Below the pieces are notes generated by a model. It did not search any database. It was not told the origin of the DNA and was given only the letters and a program-made list of their open reading frames with translations. 20,000 nt of DNA from an uncultured virus (IMG/VR IMGVR_UViG_3300033153_002864) (lineage: Duplodnaviria > Heunggongvirae > Uroviricota > Caudoviricetes), in IMG/VR virus record IMGVR_UViG_3300033153_002864. One strand, 5' to 3'. How positions within the stretch are numbered: the first letter of the stretch is position 1; every line of letters starts with the position of its first letter. This document shows positions 1,250 through 19,786 of this stretch, in pieces. The position numbers were made by a program, and so were the translations under genes.

Positions 1250-1284
1250 AAAAAGAGCAACCCTTAATTGGATTGCTCTTTTTT
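1250..1284. terminator. Bidirectional intrinsic terminator
   Basis: AAAAAGAGCAACCC-TTAATT-GGATTGCTCTTTTTT inverted repeat with T tracts on both strands, at the convergence of the + and - gene blocks. Confidence 0.8.
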
Positions 1285-2358: not shown

Positions 2359-2383
2359 AATTATAAGTTTTAGTTTAAATAAC

Positions 2384-2405
2384 AAAGAGCCCCGAAGGAC
2401 TCTTT
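2384..2405 (-). repeat. GGCTCT hairpin element, copy 1
   Basis: mRNA AAAGAGUCC-UUCG-GGGCUCUUU, with a cUUCGg tetraloop and a U-G pair. Confidence 0.9.
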
Positions 2406-2412
2406 ATTGTTT

Positions 2413-2499
2413 TTAATCTTCAGGACGATTATAAATCCAAATACGCCATAGTAAGCATGTAAATAATACCCAAAATATTATAACTAATGTAACTATCAT
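2413..2499 (-). CDS. 28-aa single-TM peptide (not in ORF track)
   Basis: MIVTLVIIFWVLFTCLLWRIWIYNRPED*. ATG overlaps the nuclease TGA. Confidence 0.55.
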   Translation of the reverse strand: MIVTLVIIFWVLFTCLLWRIWIYNRPED

Positions 2500-3356
2500 A
2501 TACTTCCCATTTCAAGGAAACTATCAATCTTATCAGGATGCTCAATAAAATGCTTCTTATACATCTCTAAGCCTAGCTGATACTTTTTCCTTCCTTCTTC
2601 TCTAGAGTCAGGAGAAAGTTCAGCTAAACACACCGTATAAGGATAAGTCTTTTCTTGAACTAAAAACCAAAATGTATCTACTCCAGCTACATCACAATAA
2701 AATGCTCCTTGTCTATCATAATGATAGTTACGAACAGATTTTGCAAAATTAAATAACGTTGCCGGATCCCTACTTGTTTTATAATCAAGAATAAAATTAC
2801 CAGTATTGATTGCATCTACTTTAATTTTACAAGGAACACCAAGTAAAGTCTTTTGGTAAATTACTTCACGTTTCTTAGCAGAATCAATTAAATCACGTAC
2901 TTGTGGATAGCTCCTAGCTTTATCAACCATATCTTGAAGTGTTTGCATATCATCTAATGAAAGAAGTGCTCTATGCTTATTATCCTCCATTAATGGCTCA
3001 ATCCACTCTTTGTATTTTTTGGTAGTTCTTGGGCGAGCTCCACCTATTTCTTCACACTTCTCAGTATCATCTATTGCATAGTAACGAGAATTAAATGCTT
3101 CTGGTTCTAATAACAAACAATGTGCTGCTCTACCGAATATAAACGCATCAGTATCTTTTTGTCCTCTTTGGTAATAAGCTTTTAAGGTTTGTGGACCACC
3201 TCTTAATATTTGTCCTAACTGACTATTTGATACGAATTTCTTATCGGCATAATACCAATCATCATCTTTATCAATGATGTTTCCTTCGTTTTTGTCATAG
3301 GTTTCTTGCATTTTCATGAAGTCTTCTGCTTCATTACTTGGTACCATTTGATTCAT
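2496..3356 (-). CDS. PD-(D/E)XK exonuclease, RecE/ExoVIII-like (DUF3799 type)
   Basis: Motifs SNSQL, FGRAAHCLLLEP, KIKVD, ILDYKT and YDRQGAFY. Confidence 0.85.
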   Translation of the reverse strand: MNQMVPSNEAEDFMKMQETYDKNEGNIIDKDDDWYYADKKFVSNSQLGQILRGGPQTLKAYYQRGQKDTDAFIFGRAAHCLLLEPEAFNSRYYAIDDTEKCEEIGGARPRTTKKYKEWIEPLMEDNKHRALLSLDDMQTLQDMVDKARSYPQVRDLIDSAKKREVIYQKTLLGVPCKIKVDAINTGNFILDYKTSRDPATLFNFAKSVRNYHYDRQGAFYCDVAGVDTFWFLVQEKTYPYTVCLAELSPDSREEGRKKYQLGLEMYKKHFIEHPDKIDSFLEMGSI

Positions 3357-3359
3357 AAT

Positions 3360-3716
3360 TTATCGTTTTTTAGGTTTCATGAATTTTTTTGTCTTTTTAG
3401 GTTCTATTGCTTTCCATTCGGGTTCACCGTATAGTCTCCAATCATAACCTCTTGTTAAGGCAAATTTGACAAATTCAATAATATCTATTTTGTAAATATC
3501 TTTCTTTAGAGGTATTCTTACCCCATTTCTTTTTACTAATTCAATATCAATAGTTTCTGAATATCCAAATTTTGAGTATTTATATTTAACCCATAGTCTT
3601 TTTATTTCGCTAGGTTTTTCATTAAATAATATAATACCTTTTAGCCCATTATCGTCTTTCCAGTAGCTTCTATTGCTATATCGAATTAATAAATTCGCGT
3701 AAAGTTCTTGGTCCAA
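3360..3716 (-). CDS. Hypothetical protein (start uncertain)
   Basis: 118-aa ORF with a TTG start, filling the gap between two nucleases. Confidence 0.6.
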   Translation of the reverse strand: MDQELYANLLIRYSNRSYWKDDNGLKGIILFNEKPSEIKRLWVKYKYSKFGYSETIDIELVKRNGVRIPLKKDIYKIDIIEFVKFALTRGYDWRLYGEPEWKAIEPKKTKKFMKPKKR

Positions 3717-4251
3717 TTGGTTTTGTTTTAGTTCCGTAATTAATTTTACGTGGTTTAAAAGTTTTGTCGGTCATTAAATACCGATCTGGAGTAAATGTTT
3801 TATTGAAAATTGAAGGTAGTTTGATTAGGTTGATGAAGACTTTGTGTTTTTCGTAAACAAATTTGATGTTGTTTCTTGCTAGTCTTGTCATATTACCCAT
3901 ATCAAAAGTACCTTTAGTTTCTACTATAGATACTAGTTCTGGTAATTGACAGATAAATGGAGTTGCAATCTTTCCTTTTGCTCCATTTAATTTAGATACG
4001 AATATTCCAATAGCTTTTTCTTCCCAATAGATAATGAAATCAGGAGTGTAAGAACTACCGTTTAGTATTGTCTGTTCTAATACCTTGTCCTCAACTCTTT
4101 TCATCGGCTTGATGTAAGTATTGATTATTGGACTAGTCATCTCATACGAAGCTTCATTTCGTTCCCAATGATTTACATATCCTTTATCTTTTAATTGGTC
4201 TAAATACCAGGAGAAATATAATTCCTCATTTGAATCGAAGTTATTTTTCAT
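3676..4251 (-). CDS. PD-(D/E)XK endonuclease (DUF1064/resolvase-like)
   Basis: Motifs FDSNEE, YTPDF and VETKG. ATG at 4251 preferred over TTG at 4260. Confidence 0.7.
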   Translation of the reverse strand: MKNNFDSNEELYFSWYLDQLKDKGYVNHWERNEASYEMTSPIINTYIKPMKRVEDKVLEQTILNGSSYTPDFIIYWEEKAIGIFVSKLNGAKGKIATPFICQLPELVSIVETKGTFDMGNMTRLARNNIKFVYEKHKVFINLIKLPSIFNKTFTPDRYLMTDKTFKPRKINYGTKTKPIGPRTLREFINSI

Positions 4252-4462
4252 ATTTCTCAACGTGTTTTTTAAGTGAATTGTGATATTGTTGACAGCTTGT
4301 ACAGTCTGGATTACTACATAAATTTAAGTCTAGTGTTGATCTTTGTACGATGCCTTTTGTTAAACATCCTTGCATCACTATAAACTCTCTATCAGTGTCT
4401 GGCTTTAGCTCTGCCATAAACTTTTGAAGTTTCTCTATATCTAAGCCTTTGTATTCGCTCAT
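4241..4462 (-). CDS. Small Cys-containing hypothetical protein (start revised to MSEYKG)
   Basis: CSNPDCTSC motif. ATG at 4462 overlaps the TGA of the upstream ORF. Confidence 0.65.
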   Translation of the reverse strand: MSEYKGLDIEKLQKFMAELKPDTDREFIVMQGCLTKGIVQRSTLDLNLCSNPDCTSCQQYHNSLKKHVEKYEK

Positions 4463-4620
4463 CCTTCTACCTCCACCCAATTTTTAATATCATACTTTCC
4501 GTACTTCTTTTCCAATACAGTATTTATTTTAGCTTTAGCCCAATCTGCAGGAACTTTAAGGATAACTTGTTTCCAGTTATCCCAATTCATTGTTACTTTA
4601 ATCGTTTTTAAATCACTCAT
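4459..4620 (-). CDS. Hypothetical protein, 53 aa (not in ORF track)
   Basis: MSDLKTIKVTMNWDNWKQVILKVPADW...VEVEG*. Starts 22 nt after the motif of repeat copy 2. Confidence 0.7.
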   Translation of the reverse strand: MSDLKTIKVTMNWDNWKQVILKVPADWAKAKINTVLEKKYGKYDIKNWVEVEG

Positions 4621-4641
4621 AATATAATTTTAAATTAAACA

Positions 4642-4661
4642 GAGAGCCACAAAGGACTCTC
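4642..4661 (-). repeat. GGCTCT hairpin element, copy 2
   Basis: mRNA GAGAGUC-CUUUGU-GGCUCUC. Confidence 0.9.
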
Positions 4662-4673
4662 CATTAAAATTAA

Positions 4674-5420
4674 TTACTGTTCTATTACTACTGCGAAGTC
4701 TTTGATCAACTCGATTTCCTCGTCAATTCTCTTATCAACAGCTTCTTCAATCATATCGGCAGCATCAACGCTTTCCAAATAACATCTAAGACCATTGTAA
4801 TCAGAACCTTCAATTAAAACATTAACCTCGAATTTTGATTTCTCTTCACCTTCAAGTAATGGGAGAACTAAAGTAAATTTTTCTGGAACATTACTTTCTA
4901 AAGTTTGCTCAAAAGAACCTTTTACATTACCCCTATTGTCATCCTCAGCTTCAATGCTTTGCTTTAACTTAGCTTTGATTTGTCTAAGAGCGTTAACAAT
5001 AGATGCATGTTCGGCTTTACTTTCAAATATGCTCCTCATAAATTTCAACTTCTTAGATAACTCCATTGGAGTATATACCTTCTCTGAATTATTAATTCCA
5101 AGAGCTGTAAATTTAGAGCCTACTTTGATTGTACCAATGATTTCATAATTCCCATGAACATATTGCTCATTAAGAATTAAATTAATCCTCTTATTTTCCC
5201 TATTAACAACGCAATAAGATTTATTCTTTTCAAAATCTTCATTACGATCTTTAATAAATTTACTAGGAGAAGAAATTATTCCAGAAATACTAACATTGTC
5301 TGGATGATGCAAAGTCATTGCTGAACCTTTACGTATAACCACTTCCTTTACTCCTTCTAATACTAATTCTTCAACATGAACTACTTCCTTATCTTTATCT
5401 TTGTTTTCTTGATTATCCAT
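4674..5420 (-). CDS. Conserved phage protein, DUF2303/YfdQ-like
   Basis: 248 aa. C-terminal VPEKFTLVLPLLEG resembles the DUF2303 C-terminal pattern as I recall it. Confidence 0.45.
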   Translation of the reverse strand: MDNQENKDKDKEVVHVEELVLEGVKEVVIRKGSAMTLHHPDNVSISGIISSPSKFIKDRNEDFEKNKSYCVVNRENKRINLILNEQYVHGNYEIIGTIKVGSKFTALGINNSEKVYTPMELSKKLKFMRSIFESKAEHASIVNALRQIKAKLKQSIEAEDDNRGNVKGSFEQTLESNVPEKFTLVLPLLEGEEKSKFEVNVLIEGSDYNGLRCYLESVDAADMIEEAVDKRIDEEIELIKDFAVVIEQ

Positions 5421-5874
5421 TTACCGCCTCCTTATTAAGTGTTCTTATTTTTGCTTGGCGTTCAGTAGGTCTTATTGGTCTACTTTCAATACACTCAGCA
5501 TTTTCATCAAATACATACATAAATCCATTCTCTTGGTCATCTACGTAATACAAAGTTCCATTACGAAATTCAGACTTATGTTTAATTGCAGAGAGAAGTT
5601 CTTTCTTATCAATGTTAGGTTCTTTTAACCTTTCCTTGAAAACATCAACAGCTTCCTTCTTTTCAACTTCAATTGTATCGATACTGATACAAACATCTGA
5701 AAGCTCAGCTCGTTTAGCAGTTACTTCTTCATCTTTTAGGATTTTGGTATATCCATCCTCTTTTACATCATAGGCAAGACTCTCTAAAGTGTCTCTTCTT
5801 GAGTTTAACGGTTGTTGGGCTATATCTTCTTGATATACATCTCCGACTTCAAATTCACGTTTCTTTTCTGACAT
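5413..5874 (-). CDS. Hypothetical acidic coiled-coil protein, coupled to the DUF2303-like gene
   Basis: 153 aa, with an 8-nt overlap with the downstream gene. Confidence 0.7.
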   Translation of the reverse strand: MSEKKREFEVGDVYQEDIAQQPLNSRRDTLESLAYDVKEDGYTKILKDEEVTAKRAELSDVCISIDTIEVEKKEAVDVFKERLKEPNIDKKELLSAIKHKSEFRNGTLYYVDDQENGFMYVFDENAECIESRPIRPTERQAKIRTLNKEAVNG

Positions 5875-5900
5875 GATTTTTATTTAGGTTAATAATTAAT

Positions 5901-6314
5901 TTACTTTTTTTGCATCTTAAGAACTATGTCCAATCCACTAATGTCTAGAGTCTTGTCCATTTTATCTCCAAACATATTGTTATAGTCATCAAGCATTATA
6001 ATTGCTCTATTAAGTGCTCCTAACAATACATCATTAGATTTGGCACTTTCCAATATTTGAAGGTGTTCAAAGATAGTTTCTATATCATAACAATAAACGA
6101 AAACTTTACTAAAGCAATCACCATCATACATGACATATACTTTGTTTATTATAAATCCTTGCTTAATAGCTATTCTATTAATTTCTCTTTCAATCTCAAA
6201 TTCTATAGGCTCTTGATTTCCTGGCATTGAGAATTTAAACTTAATAAGTCCAACAATTTTTTCTTCCTTAAATTTCTTTAGTAATGGCTCTATTACTGGT
6301 TTTAAATTTTTCAT
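5901..6314 (-). CDS. Hypothetical protein
   Basis: 137-aa ORF, TAATG-coupled to the upstream small ORF. Confidence 0.7.
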   Translation of the reverse strand: MKNLKPVIEPLLKKFKEEKIVGLIKFKFSMPGNQEPIEFEIEREINRIAIKQGFIINKVYVMYDGDCFSKVFVYCYDIETIFEHLQILESAKSNDVLLGALNRAIIMLDDYNNMFGDKMDKTLDISGLDIVLKMQKK

Positions 6315-6424
6315 TAGTTATCTTTTGATATGAATAATTGATTCATTTTATGTTCAAATTCAATGAACAAAAGTTCTATTTCAAGACATCCTACTTCAAT
6401 AATATCTTCTGTTTCCTGATTCAT
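6314..6424 (-). CDS. 36-aa acidic peptide (not in ORF track)
   Basis: MNQETEDIIEVGCLEIELLFIEFEHKMNQLFISKDN*. ATGA and TAATG overlaps fill the gap exactly. Confidence 0.55.
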   Translation of the reverse strand: MNQETEDIIEVGCLEIELLFIEFEHKMNQLFISKDN

Positions 6425-6783
6425 GTCGTAGTTCCTCCAGATAATAATTCTGCATGCAACCATTTAAGTTGAACACTCATTTGAATATGAACTTTTTCAG
6501 AAGCTTCAATAAGTCTTCGTAACATATACAATTCAGGATGTTTTACATTAGCTGTATTTGTTGCTGCATTAACTTTTTCTCCTTGATTTCTTAATGAGTA
6601 AATAGTAGATTCAAAAGCGTTATGTGCCTGAGCTCTATATTTTTCTAAAAAGAACATATTTGAAGCAAGGGCATTTCCCATTGTCAAAAGTCCTTCAGGA
6701 TGATGGTCTTCGGTATCATTAAATTCTTCAATTATTGAAGTTACCTTTTCCACAATTTCATTCATTTTTATCGCATCTGTCAT
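6421..6783 (-). CDS. Hypothetical alpha-helical protein
   Basis: 120-aa ORF following repeat copy 3. Confidence 0.75.
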   Translation of the reverse strand: MTDAIKMNEIVEKVTSIIEEFNDTEDHHPEGLLTMGNALASNMFFLEKYRAQAHNAFESTIYSLRNQGEKVNAATNTANVKHPELYMLRRLIEASEKVHIQMSVQLKWLHAELLSGGTTT

Positions 6784-6800
6784 AAGCTATGATTTTAAAT

Positions 6801-6829
6801 TACAGAGAGCCACTAAGTGACTCTCTGTA
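6801..6829 (-). repeat. GGCTCT hairpin element, copy 3
   Basis: mRNA UACAGAGAGUCAC-UUA-GUGGCUCUCUGUA, 13 bp with one U-G. Confidence 0.9.
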
Positions 6830-6835
6830 TTCTTT

Positions 6836-7489
6836 TTAAAATGGTAAATCATCAACTGGTCCTGCAGGCGGTTGAGTTGCTGCGGGCATTTCATTATTCG
6901 CTGATGCATCAGCTTGAGCAACTGGTGCTACTGGTGCAACTACTTGAGGATTATCTCTATTCCACTTTTCTAACTCTGCAGCTAATTTAATTTGACCTTT
7001 TTCATCTAAATTACTTCTCAAGTAAGATTGATTTCCTTTAATTTCTCCATCAGCTGGAGCACTAAAAGAATATTCTACTTTGGTTCTAATCTCAGGCTTA
7101 TTGTTATTATTACCATCAACACCAATGTATTCAACTTCCTTGAATAAAGCTTTAACTTGCTTACCCATTGCAGATTTAATAGTATTCTCTCCTCCTAAAG
7201 CCCAATCAGCTCCCGCATTTGAAAATAACTCTTTAATCCTTTTTAACTTCCATTCTTTAGAGCCGTCACTATCTGTTGGTCTTACTCTATATAATCTTGA
7301 ACTGTTAATGGCTTTCGCATCACTAACTGTTTCAAATGTCACTTCAATATAAGGACATCCATTAAAACTAGCATCTGTTGGAGACATTTTGTAACTCTTT
7401 AAAGTTACTAGTTCAACACACGCTTTATTTATGTAGTTACCACCTAATTCGGCTTTTTGTACATCTTTCATTTCATCATCAAAACTCAT
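6836..7489 (-). CDS. Putative single-stranded DNA-binding protein (DUF669-like)
   Basis: Beta-rich N-terminal domain, Pro/Ala linker and acidic DDLPF C-terminus. Directly downstream of the Sak4-like ATPase. Confidence 0.7.
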   Translation of the reverse strand: MSFDDEMKDVQKAELGGNYINKACVELVTLKSYKMSPTDASFNGCPYIEVTFETVSDAKAINSSRLYRVRPTDSDGSKEWKLKRIKELFSNAGADWALGGENTIKSAMGKQVKALFKEVEYIGVDGNNNNKPEIRTKVEYSFSAPADGEIKGNQSYLRSNLDEKGQIKLAAELEKWNRDNPQVVAPVAPVAQADASANNEMPAATQPPAGPVDDLPF

Positions 7490-7500
7490 AATATTCTTTT

Positions 7501-8223
7501 TTAGTTATTAGTTCCATTTAATTCTTCTACCGTAGGCTCTATTTCCTCTGGTGTAGGAGCTTCTGTTACAGGAGCTTCATCTTCCGCATAATATGCTTCA
7601 ATGTGTTTAATCACTTCGGCAATATCATTTGGCATTCTTAATGGTAACATATCCATAGGGGATTTGATACCAGTGTTCTCATATCCAGCTTGTTTATTAG
7701 TAACAAATTGATACTCAGAACCTTTTTCAGTTGTAATCATATCAGTATATAATACCATTACAAACTCTTTTTCAACTTGCTTTTTCAGCTTTCCTTGAAC
7801 ATATACATATCTCTCCTCTACTCCATTAGATCCTTCAATTACACCATCTATTCCTAGGAATATAATGTACTTGTCAGTTCCTTTAGATAAGCGAAGAATA
7901 CGATTGATTTCATCAGCGTAATCACTCCATATATCATAACCTGTATATGCAGCTTTAGACTTAATGTATTGATGTTCTACCATTGAGGTAAAAGATTCAA
8001 TTACTATTACTTTGGCTACTGTTGATGCTATCGCTCTTTCAAATGCAACATGAAATTCACTCATATTGGCAATAGGTACATTTAGCTTAAACTTCTGTCC
8101 TGACTTAAATGGCAGGGCTTTCTGTTCTGTGTTTAAAATGATAGTTGTTGTTGGGTCAAGATTTCTTAAAGATGTTGACTTACCAGAACCCGAAGGTCCA
8201 ACTATAAAAATGTTTGGCTTCAT
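7501..8223 (-). CDS. AAA_24/Sak4-like P-loop ATPase (recombination/annealing)
   Basis: Walker A GPSGSGKS, Walker B-like VIVIES, C-terminal KSPMDM...PND, and a neighbouring SSB-like gene. Confidence 0.8.
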   Translation of the reverse strand: MKPNIFIVGPSGSGKSTSLRNLDPTTTIILNTEQKALPFKSGQKFKLNVPIANMSEFHVAFERAIASTVAKVIVIESFTSMVEHQYIKSKAAYTGYDIWSDYADEINRILRLSKGTDKYIIFLGIDGVIEGSNGVEERYVYVQGKLKKQVEKEFVMVLYTDMITTEKGSEYQFVTNKQAGYENTGIKSPMDMLPLRMPNDIAEVIKHIEAYYAEDEAPVTEAPTPEEIEPTVEELNGTNN

Positions 8224-8227
8224 TAAA

Positions 8228-8500
8228 TTAATTTTTGAAGATTAGAAAATTGGTTCCTTGAGGATCAACAATTACATCATGTATTACTTGGTGCAATTCG
8301 ATACTACTCAAACCTGTTAATTGATTTATTCTACTTTTTTTTAACTCAGAATGTTCGCAAACTTTCTGAATTTCGTCATCACTATCTATTTTGTCAATTA
8401 CTCTATTGGTACTTAATAGATGTGGTATTAATTCACACCCTTTTTTACCGCCATATGATAGTCGGTTTATAAGGGTTATTCTGCTTTTAAGTCTAGACAT
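8228..8500 (-). CDS. Hypothetical protein (start probably MSRLKSR)
   Basis: First ATG is at 8500. The longer call runs over the predicted promoter. Confidence 0.6.
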   Translation of the reverse strand: MSRLKSRITLINRLSYGGKKGCELIPHLLSTNRVIDKIDSDDEIQKVCEHSELKKSRINQLTGLSSIELHQVIHDVIVDPQGTNFLIFKN

Positions 8501-8507
8501 AACAATA

Positions 8508-8538
8508 CAAATGTACAAAAAATACACAAATAAAACAA
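8508..8538 (-). promoter_or_regulatory. Bacteroidota sigmaA-type promoter (-33/-7)
   Basis: Minus strand TTG (8538-8536), 20-nt spacer, TACATTTG (8515-8508). Matches TTG-N19/20-TAnnTTTG and lies in an intergenic gap. Confidence 0.55.
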
Positions 8539-8539
8539 G

Positions 8540-8809
8540 CTATTTTTTATACTTTTTACCATAAGCTGTTTTTTTATCTTTTCGCTTTCTTAAATTAATG
8601 TTTTTACTTTCTTTTTTCACTTTTCGCTTGTAATGAGATGATAATTTAAGGACAAAAAAGCCCTTTATGTTTATCTCCTCGTTACGAAGCATTAACTGTC
8701 TTAATCCAAAGTAAAACTTCCTAATAATTAGGTGTACTACTTTAGGGTCTAAATCAGTCTTTTTAGAAATTTCAGCAATAATTTTGCTGTGTTTATACTT
8801 CTTTCTCAT
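8540..8809 (-). CDS. HU/IHF-like DNA-binding protein
   Basis: Pattern IIAEISKKTDL...V..II..F...L...EEINIKGF, followed by a very basic tail. Confidence 0.7.
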   Translation of the reverse strand: MRKKYKHSKIIAEISKKTDLDPKVVHLIIRKFYFGLRQLMLRNEEINIKGFFVLKLSSHYKRKVKKESKNINLRKRKDKKTAYGKKYKK

Positions 8810-10227: not shown

Positions 10228-10247
10228 ATTATCTAAATTTTTAATTC

Positions 10248-10285
10248 AAAGAGCCACAAAGAACTTTCGTTCCTTGCAACTCTTT
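10248..10285 (-). repeat. GGCTCT hairpin element, copy 4 (long form)
   Basis: mRNA AAAGAGUUGCAAGGAAC-GAAA-GUUCUUUGUGGCUCUUU, 17 bp with four G-U pairs and a GNRA loop. Confidence 0.9.
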
Positions 10286-10290
10286 AGTTT

Positions 10291-11931: not shown

Positions 11932-11954
11932 AATTTTAGTTTTAAGTTAATAAC

Positions 11955-11974
11955 ATAGAGCCGTTAAGCTCTAT
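11955..11974 (-). repeat. GGCTCT hairpin element, copy 5
   Basis: mRNA AUAGAGCU-UAAC-GGCUCUAU. Confidence 0.9.
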
Positions 11975-11978
11975 ATTA

Positions 11979-12869: not shown

Positions 12870-12987
12870 ATCCGTAAGGATTTTTAATATTATCTTCTCC
12901 ACAAGTTCCGCAATAAGCTAACTTTGGGTTCTCTTTATCTTTTCCTAAATTGTCAAGACAATTAGGACATCTTAAATCTGTTGCCAT
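12847..12987 (-). CDS. 46-aa zinc-ribbon protein with acidic tail (not in ORF track)
   Basis: MATDLRCPNCLDNLGKDKENPKLAYCGTCGEDNIKNPYGYDEEEED*. Confidence 0.7.
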   Translation of the reverse strand: MATDLRCPNCLDNLGKDKENPKLAYCGTCGEDNIKNPYGYDEEEED

Positions 12988-12989
12988 AG

Positions 12990-13379
12990 TTATTGTTTTA
13001 TTAGTTTAATTAATGATTCAATTTCTTTTTTATATTTAGGACTTACGCCTATTTCTCCTAGAGCTTTATTTGCTGAAACAGTACAAGTTGAATGTGCTCT
13101 ATTCATTATATCTCCAGTTTTATGAGCTGTATAGCCTTGTTCATGATGAAAAATATAGGACAAGGCTCTTTTGCATTGTCTTTCATTTGTCATCCCATGA
13201 CCTCTTGATTTTGCACTACTTTTTGTAGTTACAGCTCTTCGTGTTGTTTCGTAATATTTACATACAATATCAAATGTTTTATTTATAAGGTCTTCCCTTT
13301 CAAGTATTGTACGTCTTTTAATTTCTATTTTTAATTCTCCCATAGAGAATTTTGATAATTCTTTTATAATATCTCCCAT
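12990..13379 (-). CDS. DnaA C-terminal-like helix-turn-helix DNA-binding protein
   Basis: VCKYY...GDIMNRAHSTCT resembles the DnaA domain IV pattern G..F.RDHSTV. Start revised to MGDIIK. Confidence 0.6.
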   Translation of the reverse strand: MGDIIKELSKFSMGELKIEIKRRTILEREDLINKTFDIVCKYYETTRRAVTTKSSAKSRGHGMTNERQCKRALSYIFHHEQGYTAHKTGDIMNRAHSTCTVSANKALGEIGVSPKYKKEIESLIKLIKQ

Positions 13380-13398
13380 GTAAGTAAGTTTAATTAAT

Positions 13399-13426
13399 AT
13401 CATAGAGCCACAAAGGACTCTATGAT
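13399..13426 (-). repeat. GGCTCT hairpin element, copy 6
   Basis: mRNA AUCAUAGAGUC-CUUUGU-GGCUCUAUGAU. Confidence 0.9.
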
Positions 13427-13428
13427 GT

Positions 13429-13659
13429 TTATTTTTCAGCTTTAATTATAGGTCTTGTATCTCCTGACTCATCTACTGTTGATGCATCTCTCAATATATT
13501 TATAGCATCAGCTAAATCTTTTTGTCTTTTAGTAAGCTTAACTATAGCCTTGCTCATTTCTGCACCTGGCTTATGTTTTCCTAGAACATCTCTTATCCTG
13601 TCAAGCTCAAGCCCTATTTCTTCAAATTTCTGTTTTAATACTTGTTCTGGATATATCAT
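13429..13659 (-). CDS. Hypothetical coiled-coil protein
   Basis: 76 aa, ATGA-coupled to ThiF. Confidence 0.7.
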   Translation of the reverse strand: MIYPEQVLKQKFEEIGLELDRIRDVLGKHKPGAEMSKAIVKLTKRQKDLADAINILRDASTVDESGDTRPIIKAEK

Positions 13660-14411
13660 AATTTAATAGGTTTAGTGTTGCAAGTTTTAAGATTAACAAA
13701 TCCTCCTTGATGAGAAATAACATACTTAGTTAATAAATCCCAAATAAGGTTCATACCTGTGCTAACCAAAACTGAATTGATAAATAAATCTTGTTTTAAT
13801 AGTGCTTCCCTGGTACTACAACTTGGAGTACTAATATCCTCATTTTCTTCCATATTTGGAAATAAACTAAAAACATTTTTAAGGATAGATATTGTTTCAT
13901 ATTTAGAATTAGGCTGCTCAATCAAAGCAGAAGCCAAAACAAACTGACCAAAATCTTTACCATTACCAAAATCTAACCAGTAGTACGATTTTTGATAATC
14001 CGTTTTCATTTCAGAGCATGAAATATAAGCACTATGTATCTCTTTTCTTGTCTTAACATTATCAACACAAGAAATTATGATATTAGTACCTTTCCATTCA
14101 TCACTAAACTTTTTTGGTATTGCTACCCAATCAAGTCCATAAAACCTATTTAATCTAGTAATCATAACAGAAGCTTTATAATCTCCCAAATCTTGAGGGG
14201 AAAACTTCTGTCTACCAATATTAGGCTGCTCTACTATATCATCATCAATAGCTTGAACATGTAAACCAGGATGATCTAATTCTAATAAGCTACAATGTAT
14301 TTTTGCTAAGTCGTTTAAGACTTGCGTTCCATTACCACCTACACCAACTACTGTTACAGTAATTGGATGTAATGGCTCTATAAAATATTGTGGGGCATAG
14401 TGTACTTTCAT
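13656..14411 (-). CDS. PRTRC system ThiF/E1-like activating enzyme
   Basis: Motifs VVGVGGNG, DDDIVEQPNIGRQ, SCVDN, YWLDFGN, PSCS (candidate catalytic Cys) and QDLFIN. Confidence 0.9.
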   Translation of the reverse strand: MKVHYAPQYFIEPLHPITVTVVGVGGNGTQVLNDLAKIHCSLLELDHPGLHVQAIDDDIVEQPNIGRQKFSPQDLGDYKASVMITRLNRFYGLDWVAIPKKFSDEWKGTNIIISCVDNVKTRKEIHSAYISCSEMKTDYQKSYYWLDFGNGKDFGQFVLASALIEQPNSKYETISILKNVFSLFPNMEENEDISTPSCSTREALLKQDLFINSVLVSTGMNLIWDLLTKYVISHQGGFVNLKTCNTKPIKL

Positions 14412-14686
14412 AATGTTGCTTTATTAATTGCTATATCCATTACTTGTTGAAGCTCTATTTCACTCCTATGTTCCTTTTTTATTCCAAGATTGTAAATTAT
14501 AGTTTTAGCTTCTTTTAACGCATCTAACAAGTCAGGTGCAGCAGCTATTAGTTTTAAATTAGCTTTAGCTTCTTCCCCTTTACTAATTGGATTTTCTTGA
14601 AAAACTTTTGCTATAGCAAATTCATTTGATTTTGGTGTAATCCAAGAATCATTTATAACCCACTTTCCTTCTGTATGTTTATTCAT
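14408..14686 (-). CDS. Small conserved phage hypothetical protein
   Basis: KHTEGKW...ANLKLIAAAPDLLDAL pattern, common in small phage ORFs. Confidence 0.7.
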   Translation of the reverse strand: MNKHTEGKWVINDSWITPKSNEFAIAKVFQENPISKGEEAKANLKLIAAAPDLLDALKEAKTIIYNLGIKKEHRSEIELQQVMDIAINKATL

Positions 14687-15375
14687 AATAAATCCTCCAC
14701 TGTTTTGTTAATATCCAACAATACACTCCTATCAAAGAGTTTCTTGCCTTTAATTTGTTCATTAATAAATGTGTTCAAGTTTCCCTTTATAGGGCTACCG
14801 CCTGATTGTAAATGACTGAACTTAGACATAAAGAATCCATCTTCCCAGCCTTTCATCAATTTCTTGACATTGGTTGATTTGATAACTCTTGAATTTCCCA
14901 TACATACACCACCATTATCAAAAATATTGTGAAATGGAGCTCTGTATAGCTTTGTTTTTTCAGTAACATTATTTGTTTTAGCCGCATACATACTTAAACC
15001 ATTACCTTTCAGCTTGAATACGAGTGTAGGCAAGTGCATCACTCCATCTTTAATTCCCAATCCTTTTGAAAAGGTTAAGTTTCTATTTGATGACTTGATA
15101 TACCATATCATATTGGCTTCAACATTTTTGTTACTGTAGTGTAATAGATTTTTGGGTAAGAATCCTTCGCAATTTATTTTATGTAATTTTTGAGGATCTA
15201 TTTCCTCTAGCATACCTCCTAATAATTTTTTAGTCAAAGGAACTCCCTCTAACATTTGATAGCAATTATTCTTATTTACAATTTTTCTTGATTCGAGGTA
15301 ATTTTGACCTCCATCTTGAGAGTAAACAACAATAGCTACACTTGGTATAAAATCTTCTTTAATTAAATCATTCAT
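14683..15375 (-). CDS. PRTRC system protein B (prokaryotic E2 family D-like)
   Basis: Motifs LPKNLL, LPTLVF, LYRAPFHNI..GGVCMG (candidate Cys) and WEDGFFMSKFSH. Sits upstream of ThiF. Confidence 0.85.
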   Translation of the reverse strand: MNDLIKEDFIPSVAIVVYSQDGGQNYLESRKIVNKNNCYQMLEGVPLTKKLLGGMLEEIDPQKLHKINCEGFLPKNLLHYSNKNVEANMIWYIKSSNRNLTFSKGLGIKDGVMHLPTLVFKLKGNGLSMYAAKTNNVTEKTKLYRAPFHNIFDNGGVCMGNSRVIKSTNVKKLMKGWEDGFFMSKFSHLQSGGSPIKGNLNTFINEQIKGKKLFDRSVLLDINKTVEDLL

Positions 15376-15385
15376 ATTTTAAATT

Positions 15386-15412
15386 TACAAAGAGCCGATA
15401 AGGCCCTCTGCA
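15386..15412 (-). repeat. GGCTCT hairpin element, copy 7
   Basis: mRNA UGCAGAGGGCC-UUAUC-GGCUCUUUGUA, 11 bp with three G-U pairs. Confidence 0.85.
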
Positions 15413-15413
15413 A

Positions 15414-16535
15414 TCATTCATTCAGATAATTAGTTAATGTTTGTAATTCATTCATCATACTTGTATATAAGAATGGATTATCACTAAATTCTTTTTCTTT
15501 TTCATTAAAGATTACATCTCTAAAAGGAGATGTGCCACCTTCATTCCAACAAGAAGTCATATACATACTAACATCTGAACCAATCCAACCTCCTTCATCA
15601 TCTAAAGCCCATCCAAAATATGAATAACATGCTGGTGTCAAAGGTGTGTGATATTCTTCTTCACTTAAAAAAACAAAACTATAATTATTAGGGTTTATCC
15701 CCATGTTCATAGTGTCTATTACATTTTTAAATGTTTCAATACATCTTCTTTCGATTGTGTTTAATGGTTTAAATTCATTTATTAAACCTTTAAACTCTTT
15801 CAACGAAACTGTATTTCCCTTTATCTCTGCTTGTAAAGAAGCTAGAAATTCAGATTCATTCATTGCATCTTTTATATTATTGATTTCTTCTTTATCAAAA
15901 TATTTAGGATCGCTTATAGTTTCTTCAACTCTTTCAGAAATTTGGTCAATAGCCATATCGTGGAAATGATTATCCCACCACATAGCATTACCTCTTCTAA
16001 AAGATAATGAAAGGAACATAATGAATAGATTGTTTATTCTTTGATAATCTTTGTGACTTTCTTTTGTATAAAGAAAACGGAACTCAGGACAAGTATTCTC
16101 TTCCGGTATCGGATAGTCTATTGACCTTATTAAAATCCATTTATCTCCATATATTAAACTCCACTGTTCATCAGCATACAATTCCTCGTAACAACTTAAC
16201 ATCCAATGTAAAAAATCAGCCTCATCAGTATTTTCACTGAAATTAGGCTGCATAAATATTGAAATATCATCTTTTATAATAGGATAAATATCCTTTATAA
16301 CTTGAGAAAGACTGTCGTTAAACAGTCCTTCCCCAATCATAGATGATAATTTAATATTATTTATACTTTTTAAACTATTGGATGTAAGAAAATTGACATT
16401 GGCATTACTCGCTCCCTTTTTTCTTCTACCCCTTGGGATATGTTTGATTTGGTTTCGCTTAATATCAATGATGCTATTGATTGATGAAAACTTTTGTCTA
16501 TTGGTTCTATTTTTCTTTTCTTTCGTTCTTTGCAT
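15414..16535 (-). CDS. PRTRC-associated protein (position equivalent to protein F); start uncertain
   Basis: 373 aa, between protein C and protein B. Basic N-terminal 50 aa followed by an acidic body. Assignment by synteny only. Confidence 0.5.
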   Translation of the reverse strand: MQRTKEKKNRTNRQKFSSINSIIDIKRNQIKHIPRGRRKKGASNANVNFLTSNSLKSINNIKLSSMIGEGLFNDSLSQVIKDIYPIIKDDISIFMQPNFSENTDEADFLHWMLSCYEELYADEQWSLIYGDKWILIRSIDYPIPEENTCPEFRFLYTKESHKDYQRINNLFIMFLSLSFRRGNAMWWDNHFHDMAIDQISERVEETISDPKYFDKEEINNIKDAMNESEFLASLQAEIKGNTVSLKEFKGLINEFKPLNTIERRCIETFKNVIDTMNMGINPNNYSFVFLSEEEYHTPLTPACYSYFGWALDDEGGWIGSDVSMYMTSCWNEGGTSPFRDVIFNEKEKEFSDNPFLYTSMMNELQTLTNYLNE

Positions 16536-16564
16536 ACGAATTTATAGAATTGATTTGCGTTCAT
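16370..16564 (-). CDS. Possible overlapping small ORF (64 aa)
   Basis: ATG is coupled to the upstream TGA (ATGA). Overlaps the 373-aa ORF by 166 nt in another frame. Confidence 0.4.
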   Translation of the reverse strand: MNANQFYKFVCKERKKRKIEPIDKSFHQSIASLILSETKSNISQGVEEKRERVMPMSIFLHPIV

Positions 16565-16773
16565 AAATTATCTATTTTACTAAGTTTTGTAGCTTGTTCT
16601 AAGAAATAGCTATATACTTCTGGTATATGTTTTTTATAATAAGGTTGTTCTGACATACACCATTTTTTTAGGTCTGCCTTGTCTTTAAATGTTACAAAAG
16701 GAAATGTAACTTCAAGCTCATCAATAAAGTTTTGAACTGTCCATCCTTCCCAAATATGTTTATCTTTTCCCAT
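16561..16773 (-). CDS. Hypothetical protein
   Basis: 70 aa, following repeat copy 8. Confidence 0.75.
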   Translation of the reverse strand: MGKDKHIWEGWTVQNFIDELEVTFPFVTFKDKADLKKWCMSEQPYYKKHIPEVYSYFLEQATKLSKIDNL

Positions 16774-16789
16774 AATATAGTTTTAAAAT

Positions 16790-16813
16790 TCAGAGAGCCA
16801 TAAAGCTCTCTGA
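16790..16813 (-). repeat. GGCTCT hairpin element, copy 8
   Basis: mRNA UCAGAGAGCU-UUAU-GGCUCUCUGA. Confidence 0.9.
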
Positions 16814-16820
16814 TTGTTTT

Positions 16821-17054
16821 TTATAATAAAGTATCTGTTTCAATCTTTTCATATTGAAATTCCCCTTCTCCACTATATCCTTGTGTTTGTTCTAAATTAC
16901 CTAAGTTCCATTCTTGGTCACCACTAATTTCATAACCTTCTGCTTTTGCTTTTTCTTTACACAAAAGCATTGCATAAGCGCGATCAGAAGCAAGACCTAT
17001 AATATCTCTTGAGGCATAAGAATGATGTCCATCAGTTTTATAAACCAAAAACAT
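16821..17054 (-). CDS. Hypothetical protein
   Basis: 77 aa, starting 3 nt after the protein C stop. Confidence 0.75.
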   Translation of the reverse strand: MFLVYKTDGHHSYASRDIIGLASDRAYAMLLCKEKAKAEGYEISGDQEWNLGNLEQTQGYSGEGEFQYEKIETDTLL

Positions 17055-17057
17055 AAT

Positions 17058-17261
17058 TTAACCTTTAGTTCCTACTGATGTAGAAAATTCATAAACCAAC
17101 TTATCATTCTTTACAGTTGGTCCTGTTACGTGAGCATTTGTTAACTCGGTATATTGATTAGAATAGAAATCAAGAACATTGTCTTTCGACATTTCTCTAT
17201 TCGGATCCTCTAATTCAATATCTCCATGTTTAAATACTCTTTTTAATTCAGTTACTTCCAT
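17058..17261 (-). CDS. PRTRC system protein C (ubiquitin-like)
   Basis: LKRVF...LEDPN..MS...VLDFYSNQYTELTNA.VTGP...YEFSTSVGTKG, ending in a C-terminal Gly. Confidence 0.9.
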   Translation of the reverse strand: MEVTELKRVFKHGDIELEDPNREMSKDNVLDFYSNQYTELTNAHVTGPTVKNDKLVYEFSTSVGTKG

Positions 17262-17262
17262 C

Positions 17263-18393
17263 TTATCCTAATATTTCAATGTGATCACTTGCTGATGGCC
17301 TTGGCGTTTCAGCTTTAACTTCTGGTATTGGCACTACTTTATCTGCTTCAAATTCAGCTTCTCTTTTAACCATATCTTCTCTAGCCATTTCTTCCATAGG
17401 AGACATTTCTTCTACTATTGGAGTTGGAGCTACAGTTTCAGCGATAGGTGGATTATGTTCTCTCCAAGTTGCTAATCTGATTTCATAATTCTCCATAGAT
17501 TCTAAATCTAATCTCTTAGGCTTAGGCTGTCCTTTTAAATCATTAGCAACAAACGCTTCTGCTATTGGAATAGGATTCTCTTGTATATGTTTAACCCTAT
17601 TTTGATATTCAATATCACTTTCTACATGAGCAACTATAGGTTGTTCAGCCTTTTGCTGTTCTCCAATAGCTACTTCCTTCATAGATGTAGGTGCAGCAAG
17701 TCCAGCTTCCGTTAACGCATCTTGAACTTGGTTAACCTCATCTTTAGATTCAGCTCCTAATATTACTGGAGTTTTATCAGCTAAAGTATTTGGAATATGA
17801 CTTAAATCAACTAAAGGTTTCTCTGCAATAGCAGTAGGTTCAGATGCCATTACAACTTCTACCATTTCTTCCTTAACTTGTTCTACCAATTTAGCTTCTT
17901 CTTTAGGAACAAACATACCTTCCGCTTTAGGAACAAGTTTGTCCATTAAATCAAGAGCTTTCTTATATTCAGGTGCAACTTTCAATGCTGCTTTCACTTT
18001 GAGAATAGCTTTCTTAGTTTCTTCCTTTTCAATAAGAGCTTCAGCTTCTTTAATATACTTATCAGCTTTATCTGTAAGTTTCTTGTCTGCATCTTTTTTA
18101 GCTTTAACAATAGCAGTCTTTTCTGCCTGTATCTCTACATTTTTCTCGAATTGAACTAAATTAGTTGATATTCCAGAAACTTTTTGTAATGGCTGTTGAA
18201 TAATACCCGCAAATTGGGCGTCTAATTCTTCAGCTGTACCTTTTAATAGAATAGGTGTTAAGCTCTTCATTGCATCATCCTTACAAGTAGGTTGAGGCAA
18301 TACTGAAACTGTAAGACCGTTCTCATTTTTACTAATAACAACATTGAGGTTTAATCCATCTAAATGCTGCTCAATACTTTTAAAAAAGCTCAT
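17263..18393 (-). CDS. PRTRC system protein E with long acidic extension
   Basis: N-terminal FF..I...LTVSVLP...LTPILLKGTAEELDAQF, then a TPR-like helix pair and an E/P/A-rich tail. Confidence 0.85.
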   Translation of the reverse strand: MSFFKSIEQHLDGLNLNVVISKNENGLTVSVLPQPTCKDDAMKSLTPILLKGTAEELDAQFAGIIQQPLQKVSGISTNLVQFEKNVEIQAEKTAIVKAKKDADKKLTDKADKYIKEAEALIEKEETKKAILKVKAALKVAPEYKKALDLMDKLVPKAEGMFVPKEEAKLVEQVKEEMVEVVMASEPTAIAEKPLVDLSHIPNTLADKTPVILGAESKDEVNQVQDALTEAGLAAPTSMKEVAIGEQQKAEQPIVAHVESDIEYQNRVKHIQENPIPIAEAFVANDLKGQPKPKRLDLESMENYEIRLATWREHNPPIAETVAPTPIVEEMSPMEEMAREDMVKREAEFEADKVVPIPEVKAETPRPSASDHIEILG

Positions 18394-18411
18394 ATATTTT
18401 GGGTTTAATTA

Positions 18412-18441
18412 ATACTAAAGAGCCGCAAAGCTCTTTAATAT
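18412..18441 (-). repeat. GGCTCT hairpin element, copy 9
   Basis: mRNA AUAUUAAAGAGCU-UUGC-GGCUCUUUAGUAU, 13 bp with two U-G pairs. Confidence 0.9.
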
Positions 18442-18444
18442 ATT

Positions 18445-19728
18445 TTAAGTAAATAAGATTCTTCTAAAATTCTTAGAACGCAATACTATTTTCATAAGCC
18501 TTTTCATAATATTATACATATTACTGTTTCTATTATGAAGTAAGCCTATTAATACTACTGATTCTAAATCCTTATCAGAAAGTACATCAATATTAGTATT
18601 GAAGATTAGTTCTTTTACATCTGGTATTATCTCAAAATCTCCTTTTAAAGATACCGCTATAGAGAAATCACAAACCTTATCATATTTATTAAGAATCTTA
18701 TTAATCCTTTTTTGTAATTCAGGATTAGCAACTTCTTTATAAATCAGTTTTGATTCATTATAACCACTTCCTGAAGATCCATAATAACCTTGACCACTTC
18801 TTGTTGTTATTTTTTCACAAGGTAATTCACACTTCTCTAAAATTGTATATAATTCCATTGGAACATATACAGCTCTATCTTTAGCTTCCTTATTAGATTC
18901 TGGATGTAAAAATAAATAGCCTTGAAATAATTCCTTAACTATTTTAGGTTCATAATCTGCTGAACTAAAGTAAAGACTACTCTTCTCAATAACGTTACTA
19001 ACCTCACTATTGTTGTACATTTCAAGGTATTGCTTAACTATCTTTCTATTTGAGTTAAGTATAGCAGTAGGTATATCTCCATTGATAAAACCTCTATACT
19101 GTCTTAACTCATTTAGCTCACAATCTTTAAAATCATAATTGAAATAAGAGTTGTAATGACTCTTGCCATCTACCAATACATTGTTTTTATATACTTTCAA
19201 TGAATTGTGCTTTACTTTTTTGTAGATGGAAAATTTGTTATTTTGAAATATTGGTACTTCTGCATTAAAATACAGATTCCATTTATCATGAACTTTCTGA
19301 ATATCCTCATCCATTTCAATATAAAATGTAGTAGCTCCGGCTTTACCTTTAAGTTTACTTCTGCCATCAATAGCTTTAGCACTGGCATCTTCTTCATCAA
19401 TAGCATTACACCATATCTCTCTAAGTATTTCCCAGGCATTCCATTGGTAACCATATTCAGTAGTAATATTCATAGAATCTCCATTACAGAAAATTTCTTC
19501 TGCAGAGATCCCTTTAATATTTACTGGCTCAGTTACAAACATTACCTCTTCTTCTCCAATAAAAACCTTGAAGTTATTCGTTGTTCTTAACAAGTAGCTA
19601 ATAGCATATTTCAATCCTGTACCAAATTGTCCAATTTTGTTGCTATCACTTGTTTTCGTACTTGCTCCAATGAGCTTTAACAGTCTTACATCAAGTAGAC
19701 CTTTGTTTTGAATTTTTAAGTATTTCAT
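18445..19728 (-). CDS. GHKL (HATPase/Hsp90-like) ATPase domain protein
   Basis: Motifs IQNKG, IGASTK...IGQFGTGLK, LREIWCNAIDE and GATTFYI in the N-terminal 140 aa. Confidence 0.75.
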   Translation of the reverse strand: MKYLKIQNKGLLDVRLLKLIGASTKTSDSNKIGQFGTGLKYAISYLLRTTNNFKVFIGEEEVMFVTEPVNIKGISAEEIFCNGDSMNITTEYGYQWNAWEILREIWCNAIDEEDASAKAIDGRSKLKGKAGATTFYIEMDEDIQKVHDKWNLYFNAEVPIFQNNKFSIYKKVKHNSLKVYKNNVLVDGKSHYNSYFNYDFKDCELNELRQYRGFINGDIPTAILNSNRKIVKQYLEMYNNSEVSNVIEKSSLYFSSADYEPKIVKELFQGYLFLHPESNKEAKDRAVYVPMELYTILEKCELPCEKITTRSGQGYYGSSGSGYNESKLIYKEVANPELQKRINKILNKYDKVCDFSIAVSLKGDFEIIPDVKELIFNTNIDVLSDKDLESVVLIGLLHNRNSNMYNIMKRLMKIVLRSKNFRRILFT

Positions 19729-19754
19729 ATAATATGTTTTGGGTTAATATCAAA

Positions 19755-19786
19755 GAGCCACAAAGAACGCAAGTTCTCTGTAGCTC
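19755..19786 (-). repeat. GGCTCT hairpin element, copy 10 (long form)
   Basis: mRNA GAGCUACAGAGAAC-UUGC-GUUCUUUGUGGCUC, 14 bp with two G-U pairs. Confidence 0.9.

Follow-up and report, generated by a model that had tools for sequence, protein, structure and literature searches.

Repeated hairpin-embedded elements between the genes of a crAss-like phage replication arm: a candidate composite signal for gene expression

In a stretch of 20,000 nucleotides from an uncultured tailed virus (IMG/VR record IMGVR_UViG_3300033153_002864; "the window" below means this whole stretch), one short motif recurs between genes, always on the same strand and always a short distance before a start codon, which raises the question of what reads it. 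A sequence-only reading of this DNA had listed ten such copies and proposed that they belong to an undescribed phage gene-control system. Searching the whole window for AGAGCCNNNAAG returned the same ten matches, all on the plus strand, and none on the other strand, against a chance expectation of 0.10 (maximum 2) in 200 dinucleotide-preserving shuffles. The minus strand is the coding strand from 1264 to 19728, and there each copy reads CTTnnnGGCTCT; in nine of the ten it continues as GGCTCT-n-TG on this mRNA strand, as had been claimed, the exception being the copy at 18419, GGCTCTTTAG, which has TTAG. Our favored reading, to which we give slightly less than an even chance, is that each copy belongs to a composite cassette in which an RNA hairpin would punctuate the upstream message and a linear motif would act as a lineage-specific promoter, possibly for an injected RNA polymerase.

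The gene calls of the window were re-made, and four starts were moved, to the ATGs at 2361, 8500, 12986 and 13379. With the revised calls all ten copies lie between genes, as first read, and the next ATG follows 15-25 nt past the end of GGCTCT; the position ahead of a start codon stands, with the range revised from the 15-27 nt given before. The elements occupy the intergenic space less completely than had been thought, as 8501-8539 had been taken for the sole larger gap without one, while in fact four of the 13 gaps of at least 15 nt lack it (5875-5900, the 106-nt gap at 6315-6420, 8501-8539 and 16536-16560). The distance from the upstream stop to the hairpin is about 85 nt at 2386 and about 0-11 nt at the remaining sites, so that the limit of 12 nt, put forward earlier for nine of the ten, holds at those other sites and fails at 2386.

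The fixed part of the element is a linear signal, CTT-N5-CTCT-N-T-purine, followed by a box made up entirely of A and T, and its spacing holds both where it falls in the loop and where it falls in the stem. When 41 short-type copies are aligned, 40 have CTT, all have CTCT and the T of nTG, and the spacing is constant, while the 5' arm occurs in two registers 2 nt apart, with AGAG directly adjoining CTT or AGAGNN before it. Long hairpins have their loop 8-10 nt further upstream, yet CTTTG-N2-3-CTCTTTG and the distance to the ATG are unchanged; the long form stands at the helicase gene in twelve relatives, where the stems vary by compensatory changes. Only here is the GG of GGCTCT invariant; relatives have TG, AG, AA, TC or TA in its place, each matched in the 5' arm. 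The nine bases described earlier as fixed are therefore fixed here, but among relatives only CTT and CTCT..T are universal. Past the stem, 60 non-redundant family members have an A/T run with no G and at most 2 C at positions 2-9 (consensus WWATTWAA), and the distance from TG to ATG is 12-29 nt with a mode of 17-19; in three of the 60 the next 45 nt contain no ATG, and no usable open reading frame (ORF) follows. Because the motif and its spacing stay fixed while the 5' arm shifts register and the loop moves, the element has a 3' half specified by sequence and a 5' half for which pairing is the one constraint seen, which bears out the earlier suggestion of a sequence-specific signal, as opposed to structure alone.

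All ten copies in the window are the 3' half of a hairpin, with stems of 9-18 bp. In the eight short copies, which have 9-13 bp stems and loops of 3-6 nt (a UUCG tetraloop among them), CAnAGAG(Y)C pairs with G(G)CUCUnUG; in the two long copies, at 10250 (18 bp) and 19754 (14 bp), the whole of CTTTGTGGCTCT lies in the 3' arm and the loop is GAAA or UUGC. The "n" of nTG covaries with the 5' arm, as in CAgAGAG/CTCTcTG and CAtAGAG/CTCTaTG. Within these ten copies, which were defined by the 3' motif alone, every non-Watson-Crick pair is a G.U pair on the sense strand, with no A.C and no transversion mismatch. Folded as RNA, the sense strand is more stable than the antisense strand in ten cases out of ten (mean -14.5 versus -9.9 kcal/mol), and DNA hairpins are weaker on both strands (-6.8 and -5.5 kcal/mol). 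Pairing was also assessed in an alignment of 26 short-type copies from 12 sources or more, comprising the window, five related contigs and seven further loci. Here 93.8% of cells pair, against 84.5 +/- 1.1 in shuffles and 31-57% when the partners are slid; four of the ten pairs have compensatory changes, in agreement with RNAalifold; and there are 23 double-change cells where 4.2 +/- 2.3 are expected, a number reached in none of 500 shuffles. A tally of pairs over the family set, biased towards structure by the filter used to collect it, gave 421 Watson-Crick, 103 G.U, 2 A.C and 14 other. From the restriction of G.U pairs to the sense strand, the higher stability of that strand and the covariation, we conclude that selection acts on the hairpin in one strand only, the one of mRNA polarity, and most simply in the RNA itself.

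The identity of the phage was established through a relative, G002, a record of 71,213 bp rated 100% complete, with a replication arm of 22 kb and a structural arm of 45 to roughly 50 kb. Encoded in the latter are a portal protein, a large terminase, a major head protein and a 1460-aa protein that matches the Crassvirus muzzle family (crAss_MUZ, E 2e-108). On the basis of these four proteins, and of a giant protein with a polymerase-like motif described below, we assign the clade to the crAss-like phages (Crassvirales), with the window representing its replication arm. No tRNAs were found in G002. Adjoining the muzzle protein is a 2794-aa protein (L076, G002 37220-45604) with no family match but with an invariant SDSDHDGDKAMV (DHDGD) preceded by VRIPAS in 13 sequences, which we take to resemble the catalytic loop of two-barrel RNA polymerases. 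Compared with gp66, the virion polymerase of the Cellulophaga phage phi14:2, it gave one local hhalign profile match (E 0.0015, 85 columns), and its nearest named Atlas cluster is PF05183 RdRP, with a score of 0.81 that we treat as a lead only. BLASTP of this protein and of its 1090-aa neighbor against gp66 gave nothing significant. The 2794-aa protein is thus a candidate virion RNA polymerase. The DFDLD of the 1090-aa protein (L073:13964-17236) was considered as a polymerase motif and dropped, being unconserved among 28 homologues; that protein keeps an N-terminal HExxH (zincin-like) motif.

The element is specific to one arm and one strand. A helicase-based search of viral contigs produced 64 loci. 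The exact motif occurs in loci with a helicase 69-100% identical, always co-oriented with the helicase, and has no forward match in the 45 loci L027-L071, in which the helicase is mostly 26-37% identical. Two loci with a helicase 51% identical (L025:3200-3275 and L026:2600-2675) share a different box before the helicase ATG, TACCTnnTAAACTAAA, which may be a diverged start signal. A covariance model built from 26 short copies and run on both strands of 308 kb recovered nine of the ten window copies on the minus strand (E 4e-10 to 0.12), with three weak mirror images on the plus strand; element 10, a long-type copy, went undetected by this model of short-type copies. All 14 sense matches of the model in G002 lie between 616 and 21,185, and the structural arm has none. 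With up to one mismatch allowed, the 14-base linear pattern matched G002 11 times on the sense strand (ten of them in the arm) and 0 times on the opposite strand; the corresponding counts are 8 and 0 for the window and 29 and 1 for G003-G007, and phi14:2 has one stray match. A 16-base degenerate pattern had 42 matches in viral contigs, of which 19 have the full architecture, all 19 in this clade. Searched in one genome per prokaryotic species, the same pattern had at least 120 matches; among the matches listed there was one per contig, in scattered taxa, none with the architecture of the element, and an interspersed repeat of the host (REP-like) was rejected on these grounds. Rfam gave no match at the elements and two unrelated sub-threshold matches elsewhere in the window. 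Among GenBank phages, megablast with 12 kb of sequence turned up nothing, and tblastn with the helicase found no record of at least 60% identity, the best among the matches listed being 34%, so that there is no cultured close relative in these results; the nearest record, G001, is a near-identical fragment of 12.6 kb. The sequence-only reading had named an Rfam or host-repeat match as what would remove the novelty, and neither search found one at the elements; the scan of relatives that it proposed shows the motif recurring in loci of the clade.

The hairpin looks like a terminator in which the U-tract has been replaced by something else. The 10 nt upstream of the elements are A-rich (53% A against 39% in the background), and the terminator between the two convergent arms has a stem, AGAGCAA..TTGCTCT, like the element stems (AGAG..CTCT), but followed by a plain T run and without the TG and A/T box. 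Evidence on the other half of the element comes from the head of the replication arm, where G002 and, independently, G003 and G004 have a linear motif that departs from the core at one base (CTTTGATGCTCATTG-ATATTA in G002, CTTTTAGGCTATTTG-ATTATTA in G003/G004) and a poor hairpin at best. In a three-way alignment conservation begins at this arm-head motif and continues through a non-coding block of about 110 nt, and the sequence upstream is unalignable. The block holds small hairpins, one with a compensatory C-G to U-A change, and is limited to G002, G003 and G004 (3 of 15 matches in a search of viral contigs are real); the leader region of the relative had no match in Rfam. It may be an early non-coding RNA, comparable to the abundant early intergenic transcripts reported for phi14:2. 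Elements are also concentrated near this end of the arm, with five or six copies in the first 3.4 kb in G002 versus one per 1-4 kb further on.

Host-type signals do not describe the element. The Bacteroidota promoter pattern TTG..TAnnTTTG is absent from the elements; it has three matches on the sense strand of the arm, the sole intergenic one being at 8539-8501. A scan for sigma-70 promoters was uninformative, giving 90 promoter-like sites against 99 +/- 8 in shuffles. Readings of GGCTCTTTG as a sigma-54 site or as the host -7 box were dropped, since in relatives its GG changes together with the 5' arm, and the first T of TTTG changes along with the base paired to it.

The elements also mark places where related genomes differ. 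Comparison with L009 and L010, which are at least 97% identical to the window where aligned, shows nine internal homology breakpoints, five of them at elements. In L010 the 1.6-kb DUF4942 methyltransferase cassette that lies between elements 11957 and 10250 is exchanged for a different cassette of 1.15 kb, homology stopping at the start codon and resuming at the first base of the next hairpin; this slot (window 10291-11931, L010:917-2069) holds a 546-aa DUF4942 enzyme here, and a 108-aa protein with a 286-aa methyltransferase (phrog_3820) in L010 and G002. L009 is without two genes ahead of element 4643, and has lost the 694 nt that directly follow the TTG in element 2386. At element 2, homology with L009, L014 and L022 sets in again at 4665, the homology blocks of five relatives begin at 10287-10292 (element 4), and blocks of three more distant relatives also begin at 10291-10292 and 4665. 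As the elements fill most of the intergenic space, the coincidence is partly one of borders lying between genes; even allowing for this effect, it is the cassettes that relatives exchange.

How might such an element work? The element would be a compact two-part unit of the replication (early) arm, in a crAss-like phage whose host belongs to the Bacteroidota. The mRNA-polarity hairpin just past the upstream stop would act as a leaky terminator or attenuator and would cap the 3' end of the message. CTT-N5-CTCT-N-T-purine with its A/T box (WWATTWAA), doubling as the 3' arm of the hairpin, would be a promoter that restarts transcription 10-25 nt ahead of the next ATG, and the overlap of the two halves would save space. 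We infer termination, initiation and the identity of the polymerase that reads the element; a promoter is suggested by the hairpin-poor copy at the arm head, by the three ATG-less copies among 60, by the crowding of copies near the arm head in G002 and by the specificity for arm and strand. Being repeated, the cassette of about 45 nt also serves as a border for gene-cassette exchange. The reader would not be the host primary-sigma holoenzyme. According to the report on phi14:2, the whole replicative module of that phage belongs to the early class and is transcribed by the rifampicin-resistant virion polymerase gp66, which transcribes denatured DNA (bioRxiv 10.1101/2020.03.07.982082), and by analogy the reader here may be an injected two-barrel RNA polymerase. 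A more specific version, in which the linear signal and A/T box are the promoter of the clade's own injected two-barrel (crAss-type) polymerase, initiating at or just past the fixed purine, and the overlapping hairpin is the stop or attenuation signal of the same polymerase, strikes us as possible but rather doubtful. Of the options offered by the sequence-only reading, the best fit is the promoter fused to a terminator for the transcript upstream; copies that precede no ATG make the translational operator less likely, and the processing site is kept as a rival.

Several results weigh against a composite terminator and promoter. The tail past the outermost G-C pair has 4-8 T in 10 nt, a weak U-tract, and a simple terminator scan that passes the arm-end terminator passes only one of the ten sense copies. 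The elements have no -35/-10-like geometry, the spacing from TTG to a TATAAT-like sequence being 12-14 nt and so not that of sigma-70. The hairpin-poor leader copy is known from two lineages only, with one core mismatch in each. The family copies were pre-selected for at least 8 of 9 pairs with G.U counted as a pair, so their counts lean to structure, a bias from which the window's ten copies and the compensatory columns are free. The candidate polymerase is proposed from a motif and two weak similarity signals, and sequence and profile searches of it against the PDB found no match. The covariance model has no match in phi14:2, where the element is absent, and the authors of the phi14:2 report found no common motif upstream of the early transcripts (10.1101/2020.03.07.982082). 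In the literature searched we found no published promoter for a crAss-type injected polymerase, which leaves nothing for comparison; a 2023 review of the Crassvirales repeats the phi14:2 scheme, and the word "promoter" is absent from it (PMC10136315).

Some of these points would suit an arrangement in which transcription starts at few upstream promoters and runs into long polycistrons, with a sequence-specific endoribonuclease of phage or host cutting the A/U box and leaving the hairpin as a protective 3' end. A hairpin of RNA polarity with G.U pairs and UUCG or GAAA loops, the very compact layout of stop, hairpin, leader of 12-24 nt and ATG, and the weak U-tract are all to be expected of it, and copies flanking non-coding stretches could release small RNAs. 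An RNA-level nuclease or binding protein would moreover explain why the 3' strand and the single-stranded A/U box are fixed while the 5' strand merely pairs, which counts against a promoter. The early region of T7 offers a likeness, as its polycistronic RNA is likewise divided at about ten intercistronic hairpins, which remain as 3' ends of the upstream messages, but the RNase III sites of T7 are longer irregular duplexes without a shared linear motif, whereas most stems here are 9-13 bp and come with conserved primary sequence and an A/T box. RNase III needs longer stems than the 9-13 bp of eight of the ten copies, the leader copy in two lineages keeps the linear motif with little or no hairpin, the long late operon has no elements, and no nuclease candidate was identified beyond the PD-(D/E)XK exonuclease; we therefore consider RNA processing unlikely. 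That the elements are ordinary factor-independent terminators or attenuators, sharing their sequence through descent and recombination between copies and not through specific recognition, seems improbable. The A-rich tract upstream and T-rich tail downstream agree with it, as does the arm-end terminator with the same stem and then a clean T run; phi14:2 has unique-sequence hairpins before several early genes, with similar A/T leaders; and cassette exchange at the copies could homogenize them. Yet CTT, CTCT and T do not change from site to site, nor between lineages with helicases only 69% identical, while neighboring stem positions covary freely. The long or short form is kept at each orthologous site, so that no homogenization of the copies is taking place, and the A/T box is conserved here and absent from the arm-end terminator, to which may be added the outcome of the terminator scan.

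The tight distance to the ATG, with the mode of 17-19 nt past the TG placing the hairpin at the 5' edge of a ribosome footprint, suggests a translational operator or enhancer, in which a phage RNA-binding protein or the Shine-Dalgarno-less Bacteroidota ribosome would read the hairpin and a leader that is purely A/U; no Shine-Dalgarno sequences are visible in the arm. We think this distinctly improbable, as three of the 60 copies have neither ATG nor usable ORF downstream, the leader copy heads a non-coding block, and most arm genes start without an element. A hairpin extruded in DNA and recognized as such by an injected polymerase seems just as improbable. The early promoters P1-P3 of coliphage N4 are reportedly read in this way by an injected, T7-like virion RNA polymerase, through a template-strand hairpin with a 5-7 bp stem and a 3-nt loop. 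By analogy the two systems would share an injected polymerase for the first-expressed arm, hairpin-containing signals before early genes and a preference for single-stranded template. Besides the transcription of denatured DNA by gp66, two observations favor an N4-style promoter here: the purine past the stem lies 11-12 nt from the loop center in short copies (a distance compared with the N4 geometry), and template-strand DNA hairpins still fold, at -2.4 to -8.2 kcal/mol. But N4 has three copies, while here there are 10-14 or more per arm, with stems of 9-18 bp and loops of 3-6 nt paired on the sense strand, and the wobbles that favor this strand become A.C mismatches on the template. In the long forms the loop is displaced by 8-10 nt but the linear motif is not, so that linear sequence and not hairpin position is the fixed feature; the leader copy has no good hairpin, and a hairpin of the N4 type was not found. 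Very improbable, finally, is a DNA-level site for recombination or replication, used in cassette exchange or priming and with no direct role in expression. The mosaic borders coincide with elements, and the phage encodes Sak4-like and exonuclease recombination proteins, but strictly intergenic placement, co-orientation with genes, a fixed distance to start codons and covariation of the RNA type all speak against it, and repeated regulatory cassettes are expected to collect breakpoints as a by-product, as the promoter-early stem-loop (PeSL) cassettes of T4-type phages do.

The PeSL cassettes, described in the T4-type phages RB49 and phi1 (PMC2839356; PMC4122927), are the closest described system. 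There, as here, short composite elements are repeated between early genes and co-oriented with them; a stem-loop acting on upstream transcription is joined to a start signal for the next gene, the two sometimes overlapping, although the function in our case is inferred; and the elements lie at borders where close relatives insert, delete or replace gene cassettes. The PeSL promoter, as presented there, is a strong sigma-70-type -35/-10 for the host polymerase, and reporters demonstrated both activities, whereas our element has no host-type box, carries a pyrimidine-rich linear motif inside the 3' arm of its hairpin, and belongs to a crAss-like phage of a Bacteroidota host, where it is known from sequence alone. 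The element thus appears PeSL-like on every structural count tested but is not a member, because the defining host-type -35/-10 fails. An "undescribed gene-control system" was therefore too strong a description: the architecture is known, and the signal itself is new. Particular to this phage are the embedding of the signal in the hairpin's 3' arm and the presence of cassettes throughout a 20-kb replication arm, not only at the first mini-genes. Nothing relevant on intergenic stem-loop motifs of Flavobacterium phages was found in the literature searched.

A further comparison is with the middle promoters of phi14:2 and the primary-sigma promoters of Bacteroidota (TTTG / TAnnTTTG), where phage order and host phylum agree with those of the element and where leaders are likewise short or absent and the sequence before the ATG is A/T-rich (10.1101/2020.03.07.982082). 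These promoters have -33 and -7 boxes (TTTG and TAnnTTTG, about 19-21 nt apart), and our element has neither. The intergenic sequence at 8501-8539, in contrast, has the shape of the middle promoters mapped in phi14:2. A 90-aa gene inside the element-punctuated arm would accordingly have a message with almost no leader, made by the host polymerase; this gene is absent at the same place in G002 and looks like a moron. In phi14:2 (L080), unique-sequence hairpins stand just before early genes at 4560-4581, 5865-5887, 15831-15864, 20929-20956 and 35439-35464, followed by similar A/T leaders, and several have G.U pairs on the sense strand; this may be the same layout without a shared motif.

The crAss-like phages are among the most abundant phages known, and they inject a giant, unusual RNA polymerase for their first genes. 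The element offers a sharply defined candidate signal at 10-14 copies per genome, with a consensus that can be separated into linear signal and hairpin, and with natural controls in the host-type promoter in the same arm, the clean terminator at the arm end and the hairpin-poor copy at the arm head. Should the more specific version be true, in which the clade's own injected polymerase both starts and stops at the element, one 45-nt cassette would carry the start and stop code of a polymerase family without a published promoter. The element also shows that gene-cassette exchange at repeated regulatory elements, known from T4-type phages, operates in crAss-like phages, which would help to explain the swapping of anti-defence and methylase genes. 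The features of the window and the leader blocks of its relatives are collected in Table 1.

Table 1. Elements, contrasting signals, leader blocks and arm genes (RNA, folding energy of the sense strand in kcal/mol; CM E, covariance-model E value)
Feature	Record	Coordinates	Strand	Description	RNA	CM E
Element 1	window	2362..2406	-	hairpin 2383-2406, TAAAGAGTCC-TTCG-GGGCTCTTTG; A/T leader to ATG 2361	-12.5	4e-10
Element 2	window	4621..4663	-	hairpin 4640-4663; A/T leader to ATG 4620	-10.8	1e-6
Element 3	window	6784..6829	-	13-bp hairpin 6801-6829, loop TTA; leader to ATG 6783	-19.1	1.5e-7
Element 4	window	10228..10286	-	long 18-bp hairpin 10247-10286, GAAA loop; linear motif CTTTGTGGCTCTTTG entirely inside 3' arm; DnaB-like helicase gene downstream	-22.0	0.12
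Element 5	window	11932..11975	-	hairpin 11954-11975; leader to ATG 11931 (DUF4942 methyltransferase)	-9.5	0.0097
Element 6	window	13380..13424	-	hairpin 13401-13424; leader to ATG 13379	-10.5	1.4e-8
Element 7	window	15376..15412	-	hairpin 15386-15412, two G.U pairs; shortest leader (ATG 15375)	-15.1 (antisense -6.4)	0.0063
Element 8	window	16774..16812	-	hairpin 16791-16812; leader to ATG 16773	-14.0	4.6e-4
Element 9	window	18394..18439	-	hairpin 18414-18439; TTAG for nTG, 5' arm compensates	-11.2	0.028
Element 10	window	19729..19786	-	long 14-bp hairpin 19755-19786, GAGCTACAGAGAAC-TTGC-GTTCTTTGTGGCTC; motif in 3' arm; ATG 19728	-20.6	
Contrast: host-type Bacteroidota promoter	window	8501..8539	-	TTG, 20-nt gap, TACATTTG; 7 nt ahead of ATG 8500; element-free gap		
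Contrast: two-way terminator between convergent arms	window	1250..1283	.	AAAAAGAGCAA..TTGCTCTTTTT and T run		
Conserved leader block	L072 (G002)	183-330				
Conserved leader block	L124 (G003)	~11340-11190	-			
Conserved leader block	L126 (G004)	~220-370				
Minus-strand arm genes	window		-	PD-(D/E)XK exonuclease, Sak4-like annealing protein, HU-like protein, DnaB-like helicase, DUF4942 methyltransferase, ArdC-like protein, PRTRC-type set (ThiF/E1, E2, Prok_Ub, PRTRC_E)		
DUF4942 methyltransferase	window	10291-11931	-			
ArdC-like protein	window	11979-12986	-	zincin domain		
PRTRC-type set	window	13656-18393	-	ubiquitin-like set		
ThiF/E1	window	13656-14411	-			
Prok-E2_D	window	14683-15375	-			
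Prok_Ub	window	17058-17261	-			
PRTRC_E	window	17263-18393	-			

Among the genes of the arm is a ubiquitin-like set of the PRTRC type, near which lie the ArdC-like protein and the DUF4942 methyltransferase; genes of the PRTRC, ArdC and DUF4942 types are more usual on conjugative elements. Across the ends of the G002 record (~71,074-71,213 and 1-137), upstream of the first elements, runs a tandem direct repeat of about 137 bp, which may represent a genome terminus, an origin or an assembly overlap.

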